A stretch of 64,000 nucleotides of DNA, taken from Eledone cirrhosa (taxonomy: Eukaryota). A program made the translations under genes and the position numbers. The notes under the pieces are model-generated. The model was not told where the DNA came from, did not search any database, and saw nothing but the letters and a program-made list of their open reading frames with translations. Numbering within the stretch: position 1 is the first letter of the stretch; every line of letters starts with the position of its first letter. Below are positions 9,700-64,000 of this stretch, in pieces. The stretch covers positions 359,104,001-359,168,000 of the forward strand of contig OZ024743.1 of NCBI GenBank assembly GCA_964016885.1, read 5' to 3'.

Positions 9700-12436
9700 A
9701 AAACACCAACCTTGTAGGGGACTGTTCCACCCTTAGGCTACCTATCTATCTGGGTTACGGGTTGGGGGGAGGGGGGAAGATATAGTCAAGGAGGGGTATG
9801 TCTAGGTGGGGGTTGCGTAATATATGTTACGTCTATGTGCTAGGTTTAACATAGAAGAAGGAACTCAGGATTTTGTGTTGGCAAGAGGAGAAAATTTCCG
9901 ATTTCCTGTTAAGCAGGTTCAGTTTAGAGTGTATTATGGCATGGCATTCCAGTAAACACAGGTCACAACTCCCGCTCTGCGGTCGGTATGGTGTGGATCT
10001 AGTAAGCTTCCTCCAAAAAAGTTTGTATGGGGTACTATTATTTTTTAAAAAGGAGATGTATACCGCCAGTGAGGTGGCATTCTTATGTCTATCGTGTCTA
10101 AATGTGTACATATGCGCGTTAAATCTAGTTTTAAATGTATTGGACGTTGCTCCTATATATGTTTTGGTAGAGTTGTGTGTGGTTACGTCACATGCATATA
10201 CGATGTTTTTCATGAGGCAATCCCCCCTTTAGGGGACAATTACTACTCCGCCTACAATTGCAACTGCGGGTTCGATTAGTTAGCGTACCTCCCGAACTTT
10301 GGTTACTAACATTATCACTAGGTGCCCCTATATCATTAGATGGCTTATTGATGCTATTATATTGCCCATTTTCCAGTGTAGTCGGTTGCTGGTGGTTAAC
10401 TGCCATTTTAATTGCTTCGAAACCTTCCCTAGTTTTCCTAATGTTCGTGCGTGCTAGGTGCGATGCGAGGTTAGGTGTGGTCGAATAGGATAATTTAATC
10501 ACGTTTTTGTTAATTATGTTGCGATATCTATTGCCTGGTGGGAAGTTTTTTTCTAATAATGAGAAGAATACTCTGGGGAGGTTAGTGAGGACATCAGAGT
10601 TAAAAGGTGGGTTAAAATACATGTTTTTCCTTCTTCTATTTTTCTTATCTGTGGGGTGAGTCTCGCTAGTGTGCGTACTATTTTGTAGGGTTCCGTTATT
10701 AACGTTAGTGGCGTTGTCTGTTTTGCTTAAGCCCGGATGGTTTATATTCATGGCGTGATCATTTGCTGTTTTAGAGTTGTGGTGAGGGACTCTAGTATTG
10801 TCTTTACGTGGTTTATATTTAGCTGGGTTACCGCCATTAGGGTTCTTACTATTATTCTTGCCTCTAAGTTGGTTAGGCTTTGTGGCCATACTATGTGTGA
10901 TTGTGTTGGTAGGTTTCACACTCATGGTTTGGGAGTCCTTATGTATATATGATAATCTACTCCCGTAACCAGATTCTGCTAGGGCCTTGTCATAATACTC
11001 TGCATTGGAGTTGAAGATACTCTCATTACAGGACAGTCTGCTAATTCTATTAGAGACCATTTTGGGAATAGCGTTTAGGACTGATTTAGGGTGGTTGGAG
11101 CTGGCGTTTACATATGTTAGTCTATCATTAGGTTTATGGTAGGGTGCAAATGTTTTAGTTTCTAGGTCAAGGGTGGCGTCTAGGAAGTTTACTGTTTTGT
11201 CATTTGCATCTATGGTAATACTTAGATTAAAGTTTTTAAAGAACCTACGTAACTGTTTCCTAGTTCTTTCTATATTGCACTTTTTATACTCGAGAGTGAG
11301 GAGTGCGTCATCACGGTATAAGCCGCCCTTCAAGTGCGGTAATGTCTCATGTAACTCCTTTAAGAGGTACAATCCTACCAGGTCCGTTACTTGTGCAGAG
11401 TCACTAGATCCCATTGTGATGTCGAAGTTATTGTGCGTATTCTTGCGGGTCCACAATTCGTCCTTAAATGTGATTATCGTTTTCCGGGCCGCAAGTATGA
11501 CATCAATTTGAGACCTAGTGAGGTCACTTTTCTGCATGGCCATGATTAGGTCCTTATTAAGGAGTATGGGGGAGATTGAGGTGTAGTACGCATCGATGTC
11601 GAATTGTATAAATTTAAGGGATTTATGATTGCTAAGGCTTGAGAACCATTTCAAAACCTCTTCCGTATTCTCCCATTTTCCTCCTGATGGTGGGTATAAC
11701 GCCGTCTAAAATTTTCTTACTGATAATTCCTATATCTGACTTCGATGGGCTAATTAATCTAACAGAGGGTTTGCTAATGAAGTCAGCCTTATGGTCTTTA
11801 AGGGTGAACCTGGGTTGCCTAGGGGTATATGGTTGGGTATACTTTTCCAGGTCTAGTTTATCCACTATGGCGCATGCTTCCTTATTAATTTCATCTAAGT
11901 TTGCGCTTGTTGTCTTTTTATAGTTTCTATTTAATTCATTGTATATAAACCTGCGATACGTATCATAATTTAAGCTATAAATATTTCTGGTTTTATCCGA
12001 GGTGACCAGGATATCTCTTTTATCGTTAAAGCCCTTAACTAAGGTTTCCAGTTTCATCCGGAATTTGTTGCTATTCCCATGGGGGTTTTTCAACTTAATA
12101 TTCCTTAATAGTGATAGGAGGTCATTCTCAAATCCATCTAGCATGGAGTTATGGGGCGGGCTCCTATAGGTTTTAAAACCGAATTTATTATTGGGGGACA
12201 CTGTGGTTGATTTCTTATTTCTCTTATCGAAGTGGAAAGTGCGCCATCTAATACGCTTAACGAAGGAGTTGACACTAGCTATCAGTAATTTCTCATAAGT
12301 AGTCCTGGATGGGGTTGGGATGTTCTTGAGTGATATAGGTAGGTAGTCTTTAGTTAGCATGCTGCCAATCAATTATAATCATACACACCACAAGGTGGAC
12401 ATGTTATAAGGATTTAGCTCAACCGGGGGGAGCCGT
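9700..12436 (-). mobile_element. Penelope-like retroelement, Hydra-type (copy PLE-1)
   Basis: RT + C-terminal GIY-YIG ORF; 5' end abuts (TA)n; 3' extent beyond 9700 (possibly to the hammerhead at 7664) uncertain. Confidence 0.88.
9833..12372 (-). pseudogene. PLE polyprotein (RT + GIY-YIG endonuclease), ~850 aa, split by two frameshifts (~11650, ~10225)
   Basis: SLKNIP...KRIRWR N-terminus; FDIDAYY, FDITMGS, GLYRDD RT motifs; FNPPF; CNCRRSSNCPL linker; IVY...YIG, KTRFNAH, CDLCLLE, LLNRKSE...CQH. Confidence 0.9.
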
Positions 12437-23199: not shown

Positions 23200-25590
23200 T
23201 CACAGTGGTTTAAATCTCGCGAATTTTGTAGCAATCCTATGTCTGCAGAAAATTGACCTTTCTATTTTGCTGTTGAGTAGCATTTTATCGTTCCTTAAGA
23301 TATGCAGCAATTCAAGGTTGCAGAGCCCGCAGTAGGACATACCGCTGCTATATGTCTTTGCGGTCGCCAATTTCGACCAGCTAATATTATAATCAAGGTT
23401 TTTGTCCTTAAGTTGCCAGATTTTATTGGCGAGGGTTGTAGAATTTATCAGTGCACGGTTATTCATTGAATGTCTGTGCACATACCATCTTTTTTTAAAA
23501 GCACCCACGGTGGATCCAATGTAGTGCCAAGTGGAGTTGCCTGAGTTTATAGTACACATGTACACTAGGCCCGAATCAAGGCACCTATTCGTTAGTGGGC
23601 TCTTATCCGGTAGGTGACAGTTGCAGTTCGGGGTATTACTCTGTGCAGCTTTCACATTGCAGTTTTGTAAGCTATTGTATGTGGGTTGTGATTTATGCCT
23701 ATTGAAGTTTTGCTGCGGTGTGTTCATGTGCGTTTGCGGTTGTGATACTGTAATGCGTTTGTGTTTTGTGTTTGGTGCTATGTTGCGTATGGGTGGGATA
23801 TCTTTCCTAGAGGTATTCTTGTGGTTGATCTTGCGTATGTGCGATTCAATGTTTGCAGCAGTAGAGTATGAAAGTTTTATAGTTTTTCTATTGAAGATTT
23901 TATGATATCTATGCGATATAGGTAAGTGCTTATCTACTAGTTTAAAGAACGTAGAAGGCAGTTTAGTTCTTATAGAGGAGTTGAAGATTGGATTAAATCA
24001 AAGGTATTTTCTTTCTCTAGTTCTTCTATAGTTTCTGGGGTTTACATTATTCGTGTTCGGTCCTCCTACTCTAGGTGCTATTTGCCTAGTTTTATGTATA
24101 GTCCGGTTACCTCTACTTTTGTATGAGCGGTTGGTATCGGTATTAATGGGTTTATTTGTGTTGTCCTTATCCGTTATAAACTGCAGCTTTTCTTTGTGTC
24201 CAGCCCTACGTAATGCTGCGTTATAATAGTTAGCATGTTCTTTAAAAATGTCTTGGTCTGAGGATAAGCGGGATATTCTAAGGGATATACTTCGTGCTAT
24301 GGATTTAATTATGTATCGGGGGTGGTTTGAGTTATAACTAATATAGGCTAGATTCTCATTATTTTTGTGGAAGGGTTCTATTAATCCCGTGCTTTGGATT
24401 AGAGTTACGTCTAGAAAGTTTGCCTTTTTAGAATTGAGTTCGTAGGTAATATCTAGGCCTAGTGTTTTGAAGAATGTTCTAATGTCTTTTCTTAATCTTT
24501 CCATGCTCTGGTTATTTAAGTTCCTAGCTATAAGGAGCGTGTCATCTCTATAAATTCTTCCTTGGAGGTTATTAAATTCCTTATGTAGGTTGTATGCTAT
24601 AAATATCCCCACAACATCTGTTATTTGCGCTGAATCGTTCGATACCATTGTGATGTCGAAACTGTTCATCCGGTTTTTTCTTTCCCAGTAGCTATTTTCA
24701 AATGTTATGATAGTCCTTCTAGCTGCTAGTATTATTTTAATTTCTTCTGGGGTAAGGTCCGAGTTATTTTGGGCAAATATTAGTGCTTTATCTAGGGTGA
24801 CTGGGGATATGGATGCGTAGTAATCATTTATGTCAAATTGTATGAAGTTGCATTCTTCCCTATTTCCTATTCTATTGAACCATTCAATTGCTTCATTAGT
24901 GTTACCCCATAAATTGATTTCTAGTTTTCCCTTAATTTGTGCGATTACTGTATCTAGAATATTCTTGCTAATTTTACCTATATCCGACTTGGATGGGCAT
25001 ATTAATCTAGTAGTAGGGTTTGTTTCGAAATTATTTTTGTGATCCTTAAGGTTAAATGTGGGGTTGCATAGGGTCAGAGGTTCGGTTCTGTCGGATATTT
25101 CGAGTTTTTTTACTATGCCAAGACCTTCCTTATTAATGCTAGTGAGTGTAGATTCATTTGATTTTTTTTGTATTTTTTGTGTAGTTCACGTCGAATGAAA
25201 TTATTGTATGTATTGAGGTCCATAGTATATACGTTTGATGTTTTGTTTGCTTTTACTATGATACTGTTGGTGCTTCTTAGTTTTTTTAGTAGTGTATTGA
25301 TGTTATTTTGTAATTTGTTATGATGTGTTCGTTTTTTGAATTTAGTTCCACTTATCATATTCATAAGGTCCAGCTCGAAGGCATCGAGTGTGGGGTTATT
25401 TGGAGGGTTTTTGCAGGATTTAAATCCGTAATTCTCTTTGGTAAATTCCCTCGTGTTATTAGCGGGTCCTTTGTCGTAGTGGTAAGCCTTCCATCGGATT
25501 CTGCGGATGAAATCATTAGTCCGTTGTATCATACCTAGTGTATAGTCCTTATTTGTACGTTTTAGATATGTTTTTCAGTGACATGCCAAT
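23200..25590 (-). pseudogene. PLE polyprotein (RT + GIY-YIG), several frameshifts/stops
   Basis: MSLKNI..., FIRRIRWKAYHY, FDITM, GRIYRDD, CNCH, LVY...YIG, KKRWYVH, CGLCNLE, LLNSKIE...CRH. Confidence 0.88.
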
Positions 25591-28740: not shown

Positions 28741-29208
28741 TTCGTTTCTGAATTTGTTTAGCAAGATTATTTATCTGAAATCGTGTGTTGAAACCGATAT
28801 TGTTATACTTTGGGAGGGTCATGTTGCCAATAAGAAACACACGCACCAGTTGCTTTCACTTCAATTTATTATATATTTATAAATTTATAAATTTACAAAT
28901 TTACAAATTTCTGGTTGGTTGGTTGGTTCCACAACCAGATAGTTGTTTATATATAGTCATAGTCCTTTCGTCACACACTCTGTGACCTCTTCAGTGACTG
29001 GGGATTCCTTTCTTTGTTTCTGTGCTTTTCCTTTCCTCTATCCTACGCCATTTTGTTTCTGTGTGTGTGTTGTGTGCTCAGTTTGCGCATGCGCCACATC
29101 CGGGTGTCTGTGTGTTATAAATTTATAAATATATAATAAATTGAAGTGAAAGCAACTGGTGCGTGTGTTTCTTATTGGCAACATGACCCTCCCAAAGTAT
29201 AACAATAT
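28741..29208 (-). mobile_element. Hammerhead-bearing PLE-type 3' end with 94-bp inverted partial repeat, between (TA)n tracts
   Basis: 28797-28890 is the exact reverse complement of 29115-29208; same family as 38964-39906. Confidence 0.8.
28955..28999 (-). ncRNA. Minimal type I hammerhead ribozyme
   Basis: agtca-CTGAAGA-g-gtcaca-gagtg-tgtgac-GAA-AG-GA-CT-A-tgact. Confidence 0.75.
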
Positions 29209-29906
29209 ATATATATATATATTAGAAAGATCGAGTATCGAAAAATCGGCGCACGAGTTAACGAAAAACGAAATCCGATATGAGCGGCAGAGGGCTCAAT
29301 AATTCAGATGAATCAGAGCTATAACTATCGTTAAAATACCGTCACATATAGAACAAGTCTACAATCAACCATACGATTTAAAATCGATAAAGGAAGATTC
29401 GGGCCAAACAGATAAAAAATATCAATAAAACAATACGTCAATAATTTAAATGAATGTAAAATCATACCCGGACCCACTAGAAAGGTGTTAAATCTAGCTT
29501 CATGGGTTTCTGTAAATCCTTAGACAGTACTCTATCAGCTCACATATAAATATAAAAGCCTACTAGAATAAGTGGAATGGAGTTTACGTTGTCAACGAGT
29601 TTTATCCTGGCGGCAAAGGAGTCAACTAGCGGTGAAAAACGCACATGGCATTAGACAAGGGAGATGACCCCTATATCCGCGTTCTCTGTTAATGTATTAA
29701 GTATATATATATATATATATACTTAATACATTAACAGAGAAAGCTTTTAGCGATACTCCGACCAACTCCCATCTCACTCAACAAACATTAGGATATACCT
29801 AAGTATAAGCCCAATTATGCGTTTGGGGTGCTAACTATATTGTACTTCGTGGATAGTTGGCTGTATTATTTTATATGAGACATAATTAAATAAATCTCTC
29901 TTTCTT

Positions 29907-30028
29907 TCCATACGATCGTTTCGTTATAAGATTTCTACAAGGTGGGAAAATAATGTCCAAGTTATGTAGCAGCTTGCATATAATCCATAGATATCCATGC
30001 AAGTGGGCCCTTATAACTCATCAGTGGA
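29907..30028 (-). ncRNA. Type I hammerhead ribozyme with 95-nt branched stem II domain
   Basis: tcca-CTGATGA-gttataag-[79 nt]-cttataac-GAA-AC-GATC-GT-A-tgga; lies in a unit ~29721-30255 bounded by (TA)n. Confidence 0.85.
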
Positions 30029-30299
30029 TGCCCAGGCAATATCAATATAAAAAACTACATTGATATTAATATTCAGCGATGGTCTCTGTCAGTGCTAGAA
30101 GGACTGCTAAGTTTGAAAGTCCAGCAGTTCTTCAAAAAGAAATTTCACACTGTCCCCAAATGGGAAGGGGAGGTCATCATAAAACATAAAATAATATACA
30201 CCGTAGGTCATTGAACGGTGTTAGGAATTCTAACCACGTGTGAAGAACTCAATTGGATATATATATATATATACATATATATATATTTTAATATCCAAT

Positions 30300-57791: not shown

Positions 57792-57831
57792 TTCAAAATA
57801 TTAACAAAATAGATATTCTTGTGATCAAGTA

Positions 57832-57898
57832 TATTTTATTATACATATTTCAGAGGTACTGAGTTAACTTCAACAGTACGTCCTCATCAGATAAAATA
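57832..57898 (-). ncRNA. Type I hammerhead ribozyme
   Basis: tattttat-CTGATGA-gga-c-gtactg-[12 nt]-cagtac-c-tct-GAA-ATA-TG-TAT-A-ataaaata; (TA)n ~40 nt downstream. Confidence 0.78.
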
Positions 57899-58783
57899 AG
57901 ATGATGCATGACATACCCTGACATAGTAGATGGTTAAGATTCAGTCATGATAGTGAGTAATATATGACAAAACTCAATATTTATATACCTTAATATTGAG
58001 AACATGAGAAAAATATATAATACATATAATAGAGAGGGTGCATGTGAGACAGCTTAAAAAATACATGGCATCAATATAACTGCTAAAACAATTTGAATTA
58101 CTGAAGAAAGAGGAAAGGAATGAAAGCATAGAGGAAGAAACAGCTGATGGAATAATATAGTTAGTAGGTGCCTCCAAAGACAAAAGAGAGTTGATTACAG
58201 AGAGAGAGAGAGACAAAGGGGAATCATTTATGTTCATGTTTATAGACAATTATCCATATATACAATATATATCTAAACTTATTTGGTTGACCGTTAATAT
58301 TCAAAATATTTAATTTAAGTTAGTTCAGAGTAATGAATATATTTTAGGTTTTACAAGTTAATAGGTATCTGTATTAATATTAAAGTATACTATCAAGTTT
58401 AATTTCTAAAATTCAAAATTTTATAAAATCAAATTTAAAGGATTTACAAACACGAGAAAGAAAACATAATGTTTTTACAACCTCACGAAGGTAAACTTTA
58501 CCAAAATTATTTATAATATTGACAACAGTTTATATAATATAATTTATAAAATAATTACAGTTATAATTATTAAAGAATTTATGATTAACAATTTGAGTGC
58601 CTAAAGGATCAACAGGCCTTGTAATTAAACTTAAAGAAGTCTGAATTTTAAATTACATATATGTGTTAATCAAAAAAATATACAAGGATTATATTGTCTA
58701 AAGCCTTAAGGTGATACCTTTCAAATATACATAACATAATACAATAATACAATATAGTAAATAAGTTACTGAAAATATTGTTA

Positions 58784-58923: not shown

Positions 58924-59568
58924 AGTCAAAACTACATGAGTCCTAAGGATAAGGGCTAGATACAAAATAAAAATAAAAAGTGAAAAATAATGAATTGTTT
59001 GCGAAACTTAAAAATGCCCAATATTAAAAATATAGTTTAAAATGTAATAGGGTTTTAATATATAGTAGACAAAAGATACTTCTAAAATGTCCATCGAATG
59101 TGATAGAAAGAGGAGCTAAAGACTTGAAAAATCCGAAGGTAGTCTAAATTTAATTAAAATAAATTAAATTATATTAAATTAAGTAATAATCATTATATAA
59201 TTTCGAACATCCAGGAAATATCTAACACTTATAACAATAGAGAGTCATTTGAGTATCTAAATTATTTATAAATGTAATTACGAGTATGTTATTACACTAG
59301 ATAAACATATTTGTACAACTATATATAGAGAGTATTATAGGTATTAATGAAGCGATATACATTTAATAAATAAATAATTATAATCATTATTAGTAATGCT
59401 ATAATTGTAGTTTTACCTCCAGTTCAGTGGAGAGAGAGACCAATATTTGTCGACTAGTATGGTTTGTTATATTTATACGTAGATATATATAAAAATATAT
59501 AAGTGCAAATCTAACTTTCTGAGTCCCCAAAACATACCCAAAATGAGTAAAATATATAAATGCATGAA

Positions 59569-61420
59569 TGATCAGTCTAAGGCATTCGATAGGGTTGACC
59601 ATCGTTACCTGGATGCGGTGCTCGAGGCGGCAGGCTTCGGACCCGTGTTCAGGGGCTCGATTGCTGCAATGCACAGCAGCAACATCTGCTCAAGGGTCAA
59701 GGTGGACGACTTGGAGCCGTTCTATATCACGCGATCCATCCGACATGATGCCCTCTCTGTACGTACTGACTCTCGAGCCACTACTGCGGAAGTTGGAGCT
59801 ATTGCTGGGCATCCCTTTGGAAGCGGGACTAAGAAAAGTGCCGCCGGCCTACGCCGACGACATGACAGTAATGGTGTCGAGCACCTCGCAAATCGGGAGG
59901 TCGGCACCTTACTGGAGGAATACGAAAGGTTCACAGGAGCGAAGCCGAACCAGGACAAATCCGTCGGTTTGCAACTCGGAACGTGGAGAGGAACACCGAT
60001 GCTTTCCGATGGCGTCGTCGGACGCTGGACGGAAGGATCGGTAAAGCTGCTCGGGGTCTGGTTTGGTCCGGACCTCCAGGTGGAGAAGAACTGGAACGAG
60101 GTGACGGCCAAGGTGTTTGCGCTCACCCAAAAGTGGGCCGAGTGCAAACTATCCTTGAAAGCTCGAGCGGAGGTGGCGAACACTTTTATAGCGTCCGTCA
60201 TCTACTACCACTTGACCGTTATGCCTTGTCCAGCCAAAACGCTCACCAAAATGGAGCGCATGCTCTTCCAATTCGTTTGGAAGAAACGGGCCCCTTTGGT
60301 GAGAAGATCCATCTGCTGGCAACACCCTTCAAACGGAGGGCTGGGGTTGCCGTGGATGACGATGCGCAAACATGCGCTCAGGCTACGGCACCTCCACGTA
60401 TTCCTCACCAGACAACCGGTGAGGCGAGCCTTCCCATGACTCGTCTCGCTGACCGAGCTGCAGTCCTGGATCAAGCGAAGACCGAGGAAAATAGGCGACT
60501 GGCACATCGAATGTGCCCAGGCGCTCACAGTCCTCTGGCAAACGGACCCGGCGATCAGTGGAGACTCCACTTTGACATTCTATAGCGGGTTGGTCCGCAG
60601 CAAGTGCGACGACACGCTCGGAGAAACTCTAGGCGTAGAGGAGGACGACCTGGCCAGTTTGATCGGTAGGAGCTTCCACCCGGGATCAATGGACAACTTC
60701 CAAAAGTCCCTGGCCTGGCAGTGCTACCGAGGAGCTCTACCAGTTCGAGACAAGCTCTACAGATACGGGCGCCCGGGTAGGGACCCTTCAAAAAAGATCT
60801 GTCCGCACGCATTTGTACACTGCCCGGGCGTTACCGACCTGTGGGGCTATGTAGAACGACTATTGTCGAGGGTGGGACCAATCCAGTTGACCACCGAGTC
60901 CATTGTCATGATCAAACCGCCACCCTCCTTCAAAAACAAGGGAGAGGCGGTTTTCCTATGTGTTATGGCTATGGTGAAAGAGGTTATATGGTGGACTAGG
61001 TTAAAAGGGCTCAGGTCAGACGCCTTTCTCTTCGGCGAGCAGCTGATTCGTTTTTTCAAATATCATTTTGGAAGAAGAATCAGGATGGAGAGAGAGGTGC
61101 TGTACCCCAGCAAATTTTATAAAAGGTGGGTGAATGTGGCAAAGATGGCCCGAGTGGTTGGGCCTTCTCTCTATATAAGCCTGTAGGTTGAGGAAAAAGA
61201 GGAAGAGAGGAAGGGAGTACTCACTCTTGGTGCTCCTAGAGATGAGGATTGTACATTTTTTCGGGGTGTGTACAACCCTTGTGTAACGCCTCCCCCCTAT
61301 TGGGGATTTCAATTGTTATTTGTTATTTTATTAATAGTTTTATTTTCATATACCTGTATGTAAACTCCCCATTTGTATTTGTCCCCTTCTTTTGTACCCC
61401 TGTGGCTAATAAAGAAATTT
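59569..61420 (+). mobile_element. L1/Tx1-clade non-LTR retrotransposon, 5'-truncated, with 3' UTR
   Basis: Starts at DQSKAFDRVDH; YADD in alternate frame; GGLGLP; RGALPVRDKLY; 3' UTR ending aataaagaaa; paralog of 30300-32320. Confidence 0.9.
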
Positions 61421-61619
61421 ATCTAGCCACCTAACCACCCGCCTCCCCTCTCTTTCTATTTGTACCTCCTTTCTGCTTTTAATGGAATTGCTACGTATCT
61501 ATAATAAGAAATCCGAAATTCAGTAAGAGTGACCACATGGTTTCTCGCTTATAGACATAGCCCCTGGGGGAGTGACTCTCCAAATGGCACATGTTTGGAA
61601 TCAAGGTAACCTCGGAAGC

Positions 61620-62985
61620 GTTTCTATGCTACTTTCGTTAACCGGCTTGTGGCGCAAACTCTGACCACCCTTCTCCGCCAGGTGCTCGTGACCCCGAAAG
61701 ACGTGCCCTCATCCTAGGATCGCCGATCCTCCCGTTCGTCACCCGCTCCACCATCAGATTCCGGCTCCAACAGCTCACAACCCTCACGAGCAGACTGGGC
61801 ATGATTGACGCCCATCCAGCCCTCTTCCTGTTGAGGAACTACTTCGCCATGCCGAATCTCCTCTACATATTTTGCAGTGTTCCTTGCTACAGCCATGCAT
61901 CTCTCTTCGCTGACCTCGACATTTGTTTCAGAGTGGCAGCTGAGGAAATTTGTAAACGTCAGGTTTGACGATTTTGGATGGTAACAGGCCACCTCCCCTG
62001 TTAGAAACGGCGGGCTTGGACTCTGGTCTCGCCGGCTTTGCCGGCGTTTCTTTAGTCATTTACCTCTAGCCGTGTCCTCATCAACAGGGTTCTCCACAAC
62101 ACAACGGAACCCATTGTGATCGAGGAGCGTGCGTCCGCCTGCGAGAATTGGAACCGGCTTGGACAACGCCCAATAGACGTCCCACATCCTCTTCTCCCTG
62201 TAGAAGTCAATTACCCCACAGAGCATATGGGATGCCACCCAGTGCGGCATGGCCTTGGACAGGATAGCGCGCCAGCTCGATCAGCACCTACTCGCATATT
62301 TTTGGTCGGCTTCGCAACCCAAATAACGGTTTCTGGCTCAATGCGTTACCCTCCGTTTTGACTGGCACATAGCTGTATAATGATAGCCTGCGAATCGGGG
62401 TTTCCCTGAGGCACGGCCTCCGGATTTGCGAGCCACACAAATGTCATTGCGGATCCACTGTAGACTATTTCGGTCTCGACACGCTGCCACTACAGTCCCG
62501 TCCGCCTTCCACGCCATGGTCATGAGGTCATCAAACATGGCTTTGATGCTGCAGGATTCCCCTCCCATCTGAAGGCGGCGGGGCTAGACCGAGGGGACGG
62601 CAAAAAGCCTGACGGCATGACTATCTTCCCATTCCACGGTGGTAACCTCTTCACCTGGGATGTCACATATAGAGACACATTCTCCTGCGGCAACCTGGTG
62701 CAGTCTGCAACAAACCCAGGCTCTGCTACACTACGGGCCGAGGCGGGTAAACTTTCAAATATCGGTCACTCTCAGACAGGTTTGCGGTCGAGCTCGTAGC
62801 AGTGGAGACTTATGTGTGGCTCCATCAACATTCTCCGGGGAAACGCCTTCTCTATTTTGCCCGCCTAGACCGCGGGGCGGCCAGTGGGTGGGTACCCCTT
62901 TTGCTCATAGTAGTGAGAGATGGGGAGAACGGGGGAGACGGAGTCAGTGACAGTGAGAGTTTGATTCTTTTGTGTTCGGACCTGG
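61620..62985 (+). mobile_element. CRE-like non-LTR retrotransposon fragment (RT C-terminus, Zn knuckle, RLE), decayed
   Basis: QATSPVRNGGLGL; [20 protein letters not shown]; GLDRGDGKKPDGMTIFPF...WDVT. Confidence 0.82.
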
Positions 62986-63096
62986 TGTGTATGTATATAT
63001 TTATTTACCACACCTCATGTTACATACACACCCATATAAACCATTTATAAATTATTACAGTTCAACGATTAGTTCTTATAACCGAAAATACTAAAC

Positions 63097-63255
63097 GGTC
63101 CAGAATTAGCAGTCCAGAATTAGCCGTCGAAACGGCTTGAGCTCAGCCGTCGGGGTCCTACTTGTTCCTATTACCCACTCTACTACCCTAAGTATTGAGT
63201 ACTTTGGTGCGTTATGGTCCATCTGGTTCCTTACCACATTTCCTTCGTTATATAT
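63097..63255 (+). mobile_element. 5'-truncated 3' end of the family at 7386-7592, ending in TA repeat
   Basis: gtccagaattagccgtcGAAACGGCTTGAGCTCAGCCGTC...ttccttcgt-tatata. Confidence 0.75.
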
Positions 63256-63257
63256 AC

Positions 63258-63830
63258 TCGGTAAAGGTAACCATAGTGAGTACAGTGAATTTTTTGAAAT
63301 TTATTTTGAAACTTTTTCTTATTTGCTAAACCTTGATTATATATGTTCTGGCTCGTTAATTTATTAACCTGCCATTGAACCACATTGGCATATGGTTGGA
63401 CAATACATGTGTCCCTGGACGCTTTTTGCGTGTAGGGATATATACTTTATTATTATTAATCTCCCCTTGGTCGAGATAAAATTTGGTCGTTTTGACTGCT
63501 GCTATTTATAGTGGTAGTAGACTGACATCCCTGCCTCTGCTTCTATCTTTACACATGGCACTGGACAGAATTGCTTCCACATCATTCATTCTCATCTCGG
63601 GAACAATTTTGAATAGCGCCAGTTCGTAATTTGAACTCGGGAATTTTATATTCTCCGAGTGAAAAGAACCTTCTGACGAGAGTTTATCTTTTCAATGGAA
63701 GGCCGCAAGGACTGTCCATTTATTTTTGAGACTCGAAACCGATTCGGTAAAGGCAACCATAGTGAGTACAGTGAATTTTTTGAAATTTATTTTGAAACTT
63801 TTTCTTATTTGCTAAACCTTGATTATATAT
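63258..63830 (+). mobile_element. Retrozyme-like element: 486-nt unit, 87-bp terminal direct repeats, intact hammerhead
   Basis: 63258-63344 = 63744-63830 (1 mismatch); TA repeats on both sides; no long ORF. Confidence 0.85.
63669..63753 (+). ncRNA. Type I hammerhead ribozyme (55-nt stem II domain)
   Basis: cctt-CTGACGA-gagttt-...aatgga...tccatt...-agactc-GAA-ACCG-ATT-CGGT-A-aagg. Confidence 0.88.
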
Positions 63831-64000
63831 ATATATGTATATTTCTCGTATGTCAAATTAATACCATTGAACAACAACTGTATCATAGACACCCTATATA
63901 TTTCCGAGGGTGTTTAGTGCATGTGGGGATATTAATCTCATTTTATATAAATTCTCCCATGTGTAGAGAAAAAATCCGTTGTTTACTCAGCTGCTATTTT

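Follow-up and report, generated by a model that had tools for sequence, protein, structure and literature searches.

What kind of element is a non-coding unit of 486 nt that is repeated for slightly more than one turn, carries a hammerhead ribozyme and lies between TA tracts, and what machinery copied it into place? The element occupies positions 63258 to 63830 of the window, by which we mean the whole stretch of 64,000 nt of Eledone cirrhosa DNA that was analyzed. A preliminary description, made from the letters of this stretch, took it to be retrozyme-like, mobilized in trans, and derived from a cDNA of slightly more than one turn. Our findings agree: the copy comprises 1.18 turns of the unit, and it is a real, young non-LTR retrozyme rather than a truncated ORF-bearing element. 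A Penelope-like reverse transcriptase likely produced it by copying a predicted circular RNA for 1.18 turns, an account that we regard as probable but far from certain. Positions m1 to m486 of the unit correspond to 63264-63749, and the copy is laid out as follows.

63258..63344, + strand: left 87-bp repeat, made of the last 6 nt of the previous turn and unit positions m1-m81
63258..63263, + strand: 5' truncation point; TCGGTA is all that remains of the upstream ribozyme, which lacks its catalytic core
63264..63749, + strand: the 486-nt unit, m1-m486, from cleavage site to cleavage site; 37.7% G+C, non-coding, predicted circular RNA
63337..63344, + strand: site S1 in the first turn, TTATATAT, m74-m81; putative reverse-transcription priming site
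63405..63445, + strand: hairpin predicted within the 109-nt "tail" that separates S1 from S2; sister families have a hairpin at the equivalent place
63444..63460, + strand: site S2, m181-m197, TA/TTA-rich; second fixed 3' end and putative second priming site
63668..63754, + strand: type I hammerhead, predicted to cut after 63749
63668-63672 (5' strand) and 63750-63754 (3' strand), + strand: stem I of the hammerhead
63673-63679 (CTGACGA) and 63735-63738 (GAAA), + strand: core of the hammerhead
63680-63734, + strand: stem II of the hammerhead, long (55 nt)
63738-63748, + strand: stem III of the hammerhead, with an ATT loop, leading to the GTA of the predicted cut
63744..63830, + strand: right 87-bp repeat, terminating at S1, which is the 3' end of the insertion
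63823..63836, + strand: (TA)n run at the 3' junction, the putative target
63837..64000, + strand: copy of a sister retrozyme family, a separate neighbor with a unit of 487-491 nt that continues to about 64315, its ribozyme lying past the end of the window

Most of what had been read from the letters holds. The two direct repeats of 87 nt are 486 nt apart and 99% identical, with a single T/C difference at 63754; the left one begins 6 nt before the site equivalent to the cleavage site; and TA runs flank the copy, on its left side as four units and a C, on its right side as the stretch 63823-63836. The unit is also non-coding as claimed, since every frame of the circle contains 4-15 stops per turn and the longest ATG frame has 52 codons. 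An endless ORF running round the circle, which a length divisible by three would permit, is ruled out by these stops. An ORF combining a reverse transcriptase with a GIY-YIG endonuclease, the mark of an autonomous Penelope-like element, is absent from the unit. Instead, we find the characters of a non-LTR retrozyme, namely a head-to-tail unit of a few hundred bases with G+C content below 50%, no protein-coding region, and a type I hammerhead with an intact core and three stems, for which cleavage is predicted. The unit folds more stably than shuffled sequences, with z scores of -4.7 in linear form (100 shuffles) and -3.9 in circular form (25 shuffles).

The copy is not isolated, being wedged between a TA-tailed repeat (63096-63256) and the sister-family retrozyme that begins at 63837, and it belongs to a family of 486-base repeats that is young, dispersed and non-coding. 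The genome search for copies and arrays that had been proposed yielded 2,651 first-look candidates (about 2,700 places) in 3.0 Gb, the best 40 of which scored 96-100%. A 31-nt pattern spanning the junction had 531 exact matches genome-wide and a clan-wide ribozyme pattern had 4,228, with 0 matches for the reversed control in each case. Tandem turns extend to 3.15 in the longest arm, and no long master array was found among the best 40 of 2,763 candidates scored with a three-turn query, although collapsed arrays could be missing from the assembly. Sister subfamilies have units of about 478-491 nt that are colinear with the window family; the one at 63837 (about 3,100 candidates, unit 487-491 nt) displays compensatory ribozyme changes and the same two ends. 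Older subfamilies L331 (G000:C1:59794800-59799000), L303 and L312 carry three to four tandem ribozymes in units of 483-484 nt, and S1-ended copies of L312 are repeatedly stacked within one TA tract. A metagenome scan with the junction pattern gave 0 matches. Contigs of a second organism cover 63264-63830 in part, in pieces of 92-160 nt with 0-14 differences, and by this resemblance the family may be common to a relative.

Other elements are present in the window. The repeat at 63096-63256 (+) is short, TA-tailed and of very high copy number, with two 3' ends 85 nt apart (63171 and 63256) and frequent head-to-head arms, and in some copies the sequence continues upstream as part of a unit of about 640 bp; it is probably another element using Penelope-type machinery. 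A type I hammerhead of a different family, with a stem II of about 100 nt and a relative in L034, is located at about 29910-30030 (-). A hammerhead-like motif at about 57830-57900 (-), tattttat CTGATGA ... GAAA tatgt ATA/ataaaata (slash, cut), represents a family common in the fetched flanks. Long frames of 505, 265, 395 and 153 aa occur at 10191-11705 (-) and 23203-25574 (-); a D5 N-terminal-like match in the first of these (E 2e-6) points to a relic of a DNA transposon or of something virus-like. Matches in a bacterial promoter scan were at chance level and are not relevant here.

The claim of an intact hammerhead applies to the right site, where a type I ribozyme is predicted to cut after 63749, but not to the left site, which has no core; in addition, the fifth stem I pair of the window ribozyme is an A.C mismatch found in 1 of 59 distinct ribozymes. 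Judged from aligned sequences, the ribozyme is selected as a fold, its stems covarying across subfamilies. In 59 distinct ribozymes from 58 loci, 269 of 295 stem I cells are paired, compared with 218.8 +/- 4.0 (maximum 232) in column shuffles and with 146 and 120 when the partner strand is slid. For stem II the corresponding values are 260 of 295, 165.8 +/- 6.5 (maximum 194), and 161 and 136; these shuffle results are not probabilities, because the ribozyme sequences are related and shuffling ignores relatedness. Single stem positions occur with four pair types, and the stem I types include ACCTT/AAGGT, ACCCT/AGGGT, GCTTT/AAAGC, GCTAT/ATAGC and GCTGT/ACAGC. Because the search pattern dictated the core and stem III, these provide no evidence for covariation, and for the same reason the variant frequency of core columns in young copies (2.2% versus a median of 2.8%) is biased and uninformative.

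Rfam returned 0 matches at gathering score across the whole window, the window hammerhead included, and the 55-nt stem II would explain the miss. In the window copy the predicted ribozyme fold exceeds the local minimum by 2.6 kcal/mol and, with the whole copy folded, the minimum by 5, and the hammerhead fold is absent from the predicted circle of this family. A search for a conserved whole-circle fold, made with 18 units of two families aligned by sequence only, gave a weak consensus (-27.5 kcal/mol). A switch in which pairing of m1-m5 just upstream of S1 would block the ribozyme lacks support across families, as predictions place it in three family-1 circles but not in two sister-family circles.

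Because its left site has no ribozyme core, the window copy is unable to release a monomer by means of two ribozymes. Release by one core acting on both sites would be possible but unlikely, the modeled energy cost being 10 kcal/mol, or 5 after the right cut. The copy thus holds one whole ribozyme, whereas a 2026 preprint (bioRxiv 10.64898/2026.07.22.740005) applies the term "active" to elements with two consecutive whole ribozymes. In the family, six arms have two or more intact ribozymes, and a whole upstream ribozyme is found in 14 of 106 arms of the positional sample described below. The preliminary description had recommended the window copy as the best experimental entry point; the locus at G000:C4:28721031-28722559, with three intact ribozymes, is a better one.

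To describe how copies begin and end, we parsed 152 insertions from four samples, with duplicate loci removed before counting. Sample 1 holds the best matches to the window copy and is biased to long copies; sample 2, the positional sample, holds every place listed on contig 1 for the junction pattern (78 insertions); sample 3 holds the 12 best matches to the three-turn query; and sample 4 holds places found with a pattern lying outside the junction. Another 23 arm fragments were set aside, comprising those of the window itself, pieces that were stray or rearranged, and neighboring insertions, and no dropped pair was head-to-head S1+S1 or S2+S2. The 3' ends are fixed about 81 nt (S1) and about 190 nt (S2) past the cleavage site: 81 of 99 single-arm insertions end at S1 (m74-83), 13 at S2 (m181-197) and 5 elsewhere. 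Head-to-head insertions (n=53) almost always use one site per arm, with 48 S1+S2, 4 S1+other, 1 other+other, and neither S1+S1 nor S2+S2 observed. The positional sample gives the same picture (single arms 42 S1, 4 S2 and 4 elsewhere; 27 of 28 head-to-head insertions S1+S2), and sister subfamilies retain both sites and their pairing in 6 head-to-head cases. Further TA units abut 188 of 194 S1/S2 ends. These tracts on the insertion flanks mask target-site duplications, which would exceed 4 bp when present.

The 5' ends, by contrast with these fixed 3' ends, are scattered round the unit. In the positional sample the median arm is 457 nt, with at least one turn in 47 of 106 arms and at least two turns in 5 of 106. 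Across the parsed insertions, 5' ends do not pile up at the cleavage site: stops within 6 nt of it are 6 of 106, compared with 77 of 1790 elsewhere (p=0.31), and there is no run-off. The 6-nt offset of the left repeat, to which the preliminary description had drawn attention, is therefore a chance 5' truncation. TA-like words at m455, m281 and m75 attract clusters of 5' ends, as expected from microhomology joining. At abutting joins the two arms overlap by at least 2 nt in 27 of 41 cases, versus 17% by chance, although the alignment may over-extend; 12 of the 53 head-to-head insertions are joined with a gap.

The copies combine a one-end tail, an inverted and 5'-truncated arm, a partial tandem and a microsatellite target, which are the characters of Penelope-type integration. 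Since tail, inverted arms and TA target are common to such elements, and since retrozymes of Xenopus resemble Penelope-like pseudo-LTRs (bioRxiv 10.64898/2026.07.22.740005), the unit might be the truncated 3' end of a longer ORF-bearing Penelope-like element, as the preliminary description had allowed for. Upstream of the unit, however, we find another turn, an inverted arm or unrelated flank. Abutting upstream sequence is common to only 4 pairs among the 99 single-arm flanks, and in none is it an ORF, which argues against a longer element of which the unit would be the end. The unit also has no similarity to the Penelope-like elements examined. We consider a pseudo-LTR origin very improbable.

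A candidate source of the required enzyme exists in the same genome. An autonomous Penelope-like family that is very young is represented in the window itself by a 3' end at about 28745-29230 (-); it has a minimal hammerhead, a head-to-head arm and 3' ends of two kinds. A full-length relative at G000:C3:360298897-360302709 (-) has a frame of 1,271 aa with reverse transcriptase motifs, a CX4CX2C motif and a GIY-YIG-type C-terminus. A Pfam search of this frame gave no family and a PDB search matched a GIY-YIG intron endonuclease weakly (E 0.2), so that its designation as a Penelope-like protein follows from motifs and architecture; its best named homologue is from Octopus vulgaris (69%). The element has 26,196 candidates, and all 150 of 150 scored places are 99-100% identical in the endonuclease. 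Its insertions end at two sites 60 nt apart, beside (TA)n, with one arm per site in 15 of 15 opposite-strand pairs, which were picked for orientation and not for their ends. Protein queries located at least three further types of Penelope-like ORF with long open frames (L388-L399).

By analogy with these ends, Penelope-type machinery likely inserts the retrozyme. The two do not resemble each other in sequence: blastn of the retrozyme unit against the whole length of the autonomous element gave a best E of 1.6, and comparison with 64 loci around other Penelope-like reverse transcriptases gave nothing at 1e-3. Resemblance to a Penelope-like pseudo-LTR was likewise absent from the one element compared over its whole length, and other families may exist. 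Because no Penelope-like element examined shares sequence with the retrozyme, the data support a class of helper without identifying the helper family. A recognition motif was also considered in the word TTGCTAAAC, which occurs near S1 and near the second site of the helper, and was rejected because it is not kept in sister families.

Some other enzyme, such as a LINE-type reverse transcriptase with twin priming, or rolling-circle replication at the DNA level, might instead mobilize the unit. Twin priming by L1 yields inverted 5' arms, and the genome does contain other non-LTR elements, with decayed ones at 59483-62900. But the two arms of the retrozyme copy overlapping sequence, unlike those of L1 twin priming, no poly(A) or simple-repeat tail is templated at the cut 3' end, and the two-site rule is common to the Penelope-like element; mobilization by such an enzyme accordingly has very little to recommend it. 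The decayed non-LTR pieces lie at 59483-61186 and 61500-62900 (+), a Pfam search of which gave no family; the word DGKKPDG in the second presumably recalls the restriction-like endonuclease of CRE-type elements.

Variation within insertions bears on the template. At common polymorphic sites the two arms of an insertion differ by 7.9% and the turns of one arm by 7.1%, compared with 25.9% between insertions. Rare variants are shared in 9 of 240 comparisons of arms (3.75%) and 28 of 465 of turns (6.0%), but in 499 of 197,934 between insertions (0.25%). In 33 of 37 cases the partner arm belongs to the closer half, and a few private indels are held in common, although later gene conversion could raise likeness within insertions. 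Copies from different turns differ at 337 of 7415 positions (4.5%), and copies of the same turn in two arms at 263 of 6180 (4.3%). In 88 informative triplets, which are not independent, the other-turn copy is the odd one in 21, where a single unit would give one third. The cleavage site is passed without an indel at 200 of 203 junction crossings (background 2-4%). Shared rare variants, together with the lack of stalling or slipping at the cleavage site, favor one circular template, an inference from sequence comparison. Compensatory change in the ribozyme combined with clean read-through is most simply explained by cleavage followed by ligation.

Cut linear monomers could serve as templates if the reverse transcriptase jumped from the 5' end to the 3' end at each turn, and template jumping does occur in other non-LTR elements. 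A few 5' ends at m482-m4 are compatible with jumping; on the other hand, stops at the site are not in excess, junctions have no more indels than background, and private variants are common to turns. We judge linear monomers to be improbable templates.

A stronger alternative is that the uncut, linear tandem transcript of a multi-turn locus is the template for the same Penelope-like machinery, with the ribozyme acting late or at another stage and circles, if made, arising as by-products. Such a template would explain read-through of the cleavage site equally well, multi-turn loci exist, and transcripts from fresh sources would be compatible with the same variant data. Moreover, unprocessed RNA of an anole element (PAc) is the dominant substrate in vitro, and its ribozyme mutants were inserted normally, with no reads ending at the cut site (PMC11167929), which makes uncut tandem RNA a real alternative. 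Several observations oppose it: turns lack inherited differences, there is no fixed 5' limit, and a ribozyme kept by compensatory change should cut such RNA. In addition, the parent transcript would set an upper limit to the length of its daughters, but multi-turn copies continue to be made in many subfamilies, and the search revealed no long array. We consider copying of the uncut tandem unlikely overall, but well ahead of the linear monomer.

If the template is indeed a circle, a series of steps can be proposed. A locus with two whole ribozymes would be transcribed and cut after GUA, and the monomer ligated to a circle. A Penelope-like reverse transcriptase/GIY-YIG protein, probably a dimer, would cut both strands of a (TA)n tract. 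Given the observed ends, copying would start at the TA-rich sites S1 (+81) and S2 (+190), and where both DNA ends are in use, one would take S1 and the other S2. Copying would then pass the cleavage site without stalling or slipping and stop at scattered points after up to about three turns, as the insertions record. Finally, both arms, having copied the same RNA, would be joined via short microhomology, whereas single-arm copies, such as that in the window, would join their 5' end to the target. The full version of this scheme, in which the dimer would bind a single circular RNA at a pair of fixed sites bracketing the hairpin, prime from both (TA)n ends, extend both cDNAs round that one circle and unite them by microhomology, is put forward tentatively, its chances being in our view somewhat short of even.

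Metazoan non-LTR retrozymes were defined, and their circles detected by Northern blot in coral, mussel and axolotl, in PMC7229834, which also proposed Penelope-like helpers from co-occurrence. The Eledone family resembles them in its type I hammerhead, short, non-coding, low-G+C head-to-tail unit and thousands of copies (PMC7229834, PMC7761336), as well as in its stable predicted fold, the autonomous Penelope-like elements in its genome and the model of a more-than-unit cDNA (PMC7229834). It differs in unit length (486 nt, with a stem II of 55 nt, compared with the 150-450 bp given in PMC7229834) and in forming dispersed insertions of 0.2-3 turns where long arrays are described. Two fixed 3' ends and paired inverted arms go unmentioned in the main text of PMC7229834, and expression and circles have been shown there, whereas the Eledone family is known from genome sequence. 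PMC7761336 describes retrozyme repeats as having no motif that points to a helper. According to bioRxiv 10.64898/2026.07.22.740005, Penelope-like elements mobilize animal retrozymes, on the basis of co-occurrence and of pseudo-LTR homology in Xenopus, where 24 of 57 families are similar to pseudo-LTRs and 1 of 9 predicted elements cleaved (8 of 9 did not). Our unit is within the 51-972 bp of Xenopus retrozymes, but our evidence consists of insertion ends without pseudo-LTR homology, whereas the main text of that preprint does not include tails, inverted arms or priming.

Penelope-like elements have a tail at one end, inverted arms and a (TA)n bias, and a circular template has been proposed for them (PMC8557442, PMC7761336, PMC4209133). 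PAc of Anolis has two internal start sites, extends both strands, is predicted to act as a dimer and does not need ribozyme cleavage in vitro (PMC11167929). The retrozyme shares 5' truncation, partial tandems, an inverted arm, a one-end tail and a (TA)n target with Neptune-type insertions and PAc (PMC8557442, PMC11167929), and two internal start sites downstream of the hammerhead with PAc (PMC11167929). However, it has no ORF, and its tail is about 109 nt, compared with the 30-40 bp reported for Penelope-like elements (PMC8557442, PMC11167929) and 60 nt in the local autonomous element. It has a full stem III and long stem II in place of a minimal hammerhead, and TA microhomology is possible at both of its sites, whereas PAc starts without homology (PMC11167929). 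Plant LTR retrozymes are similarly non-autonomous, with a hammerhead and a circular intermediate, which is predicted here (PMC7229834, 10.64898/2026.07.22.740005), but they have a type III ribozyme, true LTRs, PBS/PPT, a 4-bp TSD and a Gypsy helper. Membership in that group is rejected, as our fold is type I and the terminal redundancy varies from copy to copy instead of forming fixed LTRs.

A literature search, with most subscription journals outside its scope, found no retrozyme with two fixed ends or paired arms and no cephalopod retrozyme. The enzyme that spreads animal retrozymes and the role of the circle as template are stated to be open questions (PMC7229834, PMC7761336, 10.64898/2026.07.22.740005), as is the question of how Penelope-like elements acquire their tail and inverted arms (PMC8557442). 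From its insertion ends, the Eledone family offers evidence for Penelope-type integration; it also supplies a small RNA whose start sites can be named and a candidate helper that is very young, with which the helper and template questions can be put directly to the test in vitro. The design of tools for RNA-templated insertion could also draw on a short RNA that is copied in trans into (TA)n tracts. If two-site docking on a circle is true, these insertions would be a genomic record of Penelope machinery copying circular RNA. One reaction would account for three features of Penelope-like elements, namely their tail, inverted arm and partial tandem, and the same genome would offer a young, intact candidate helper for reconstitution.
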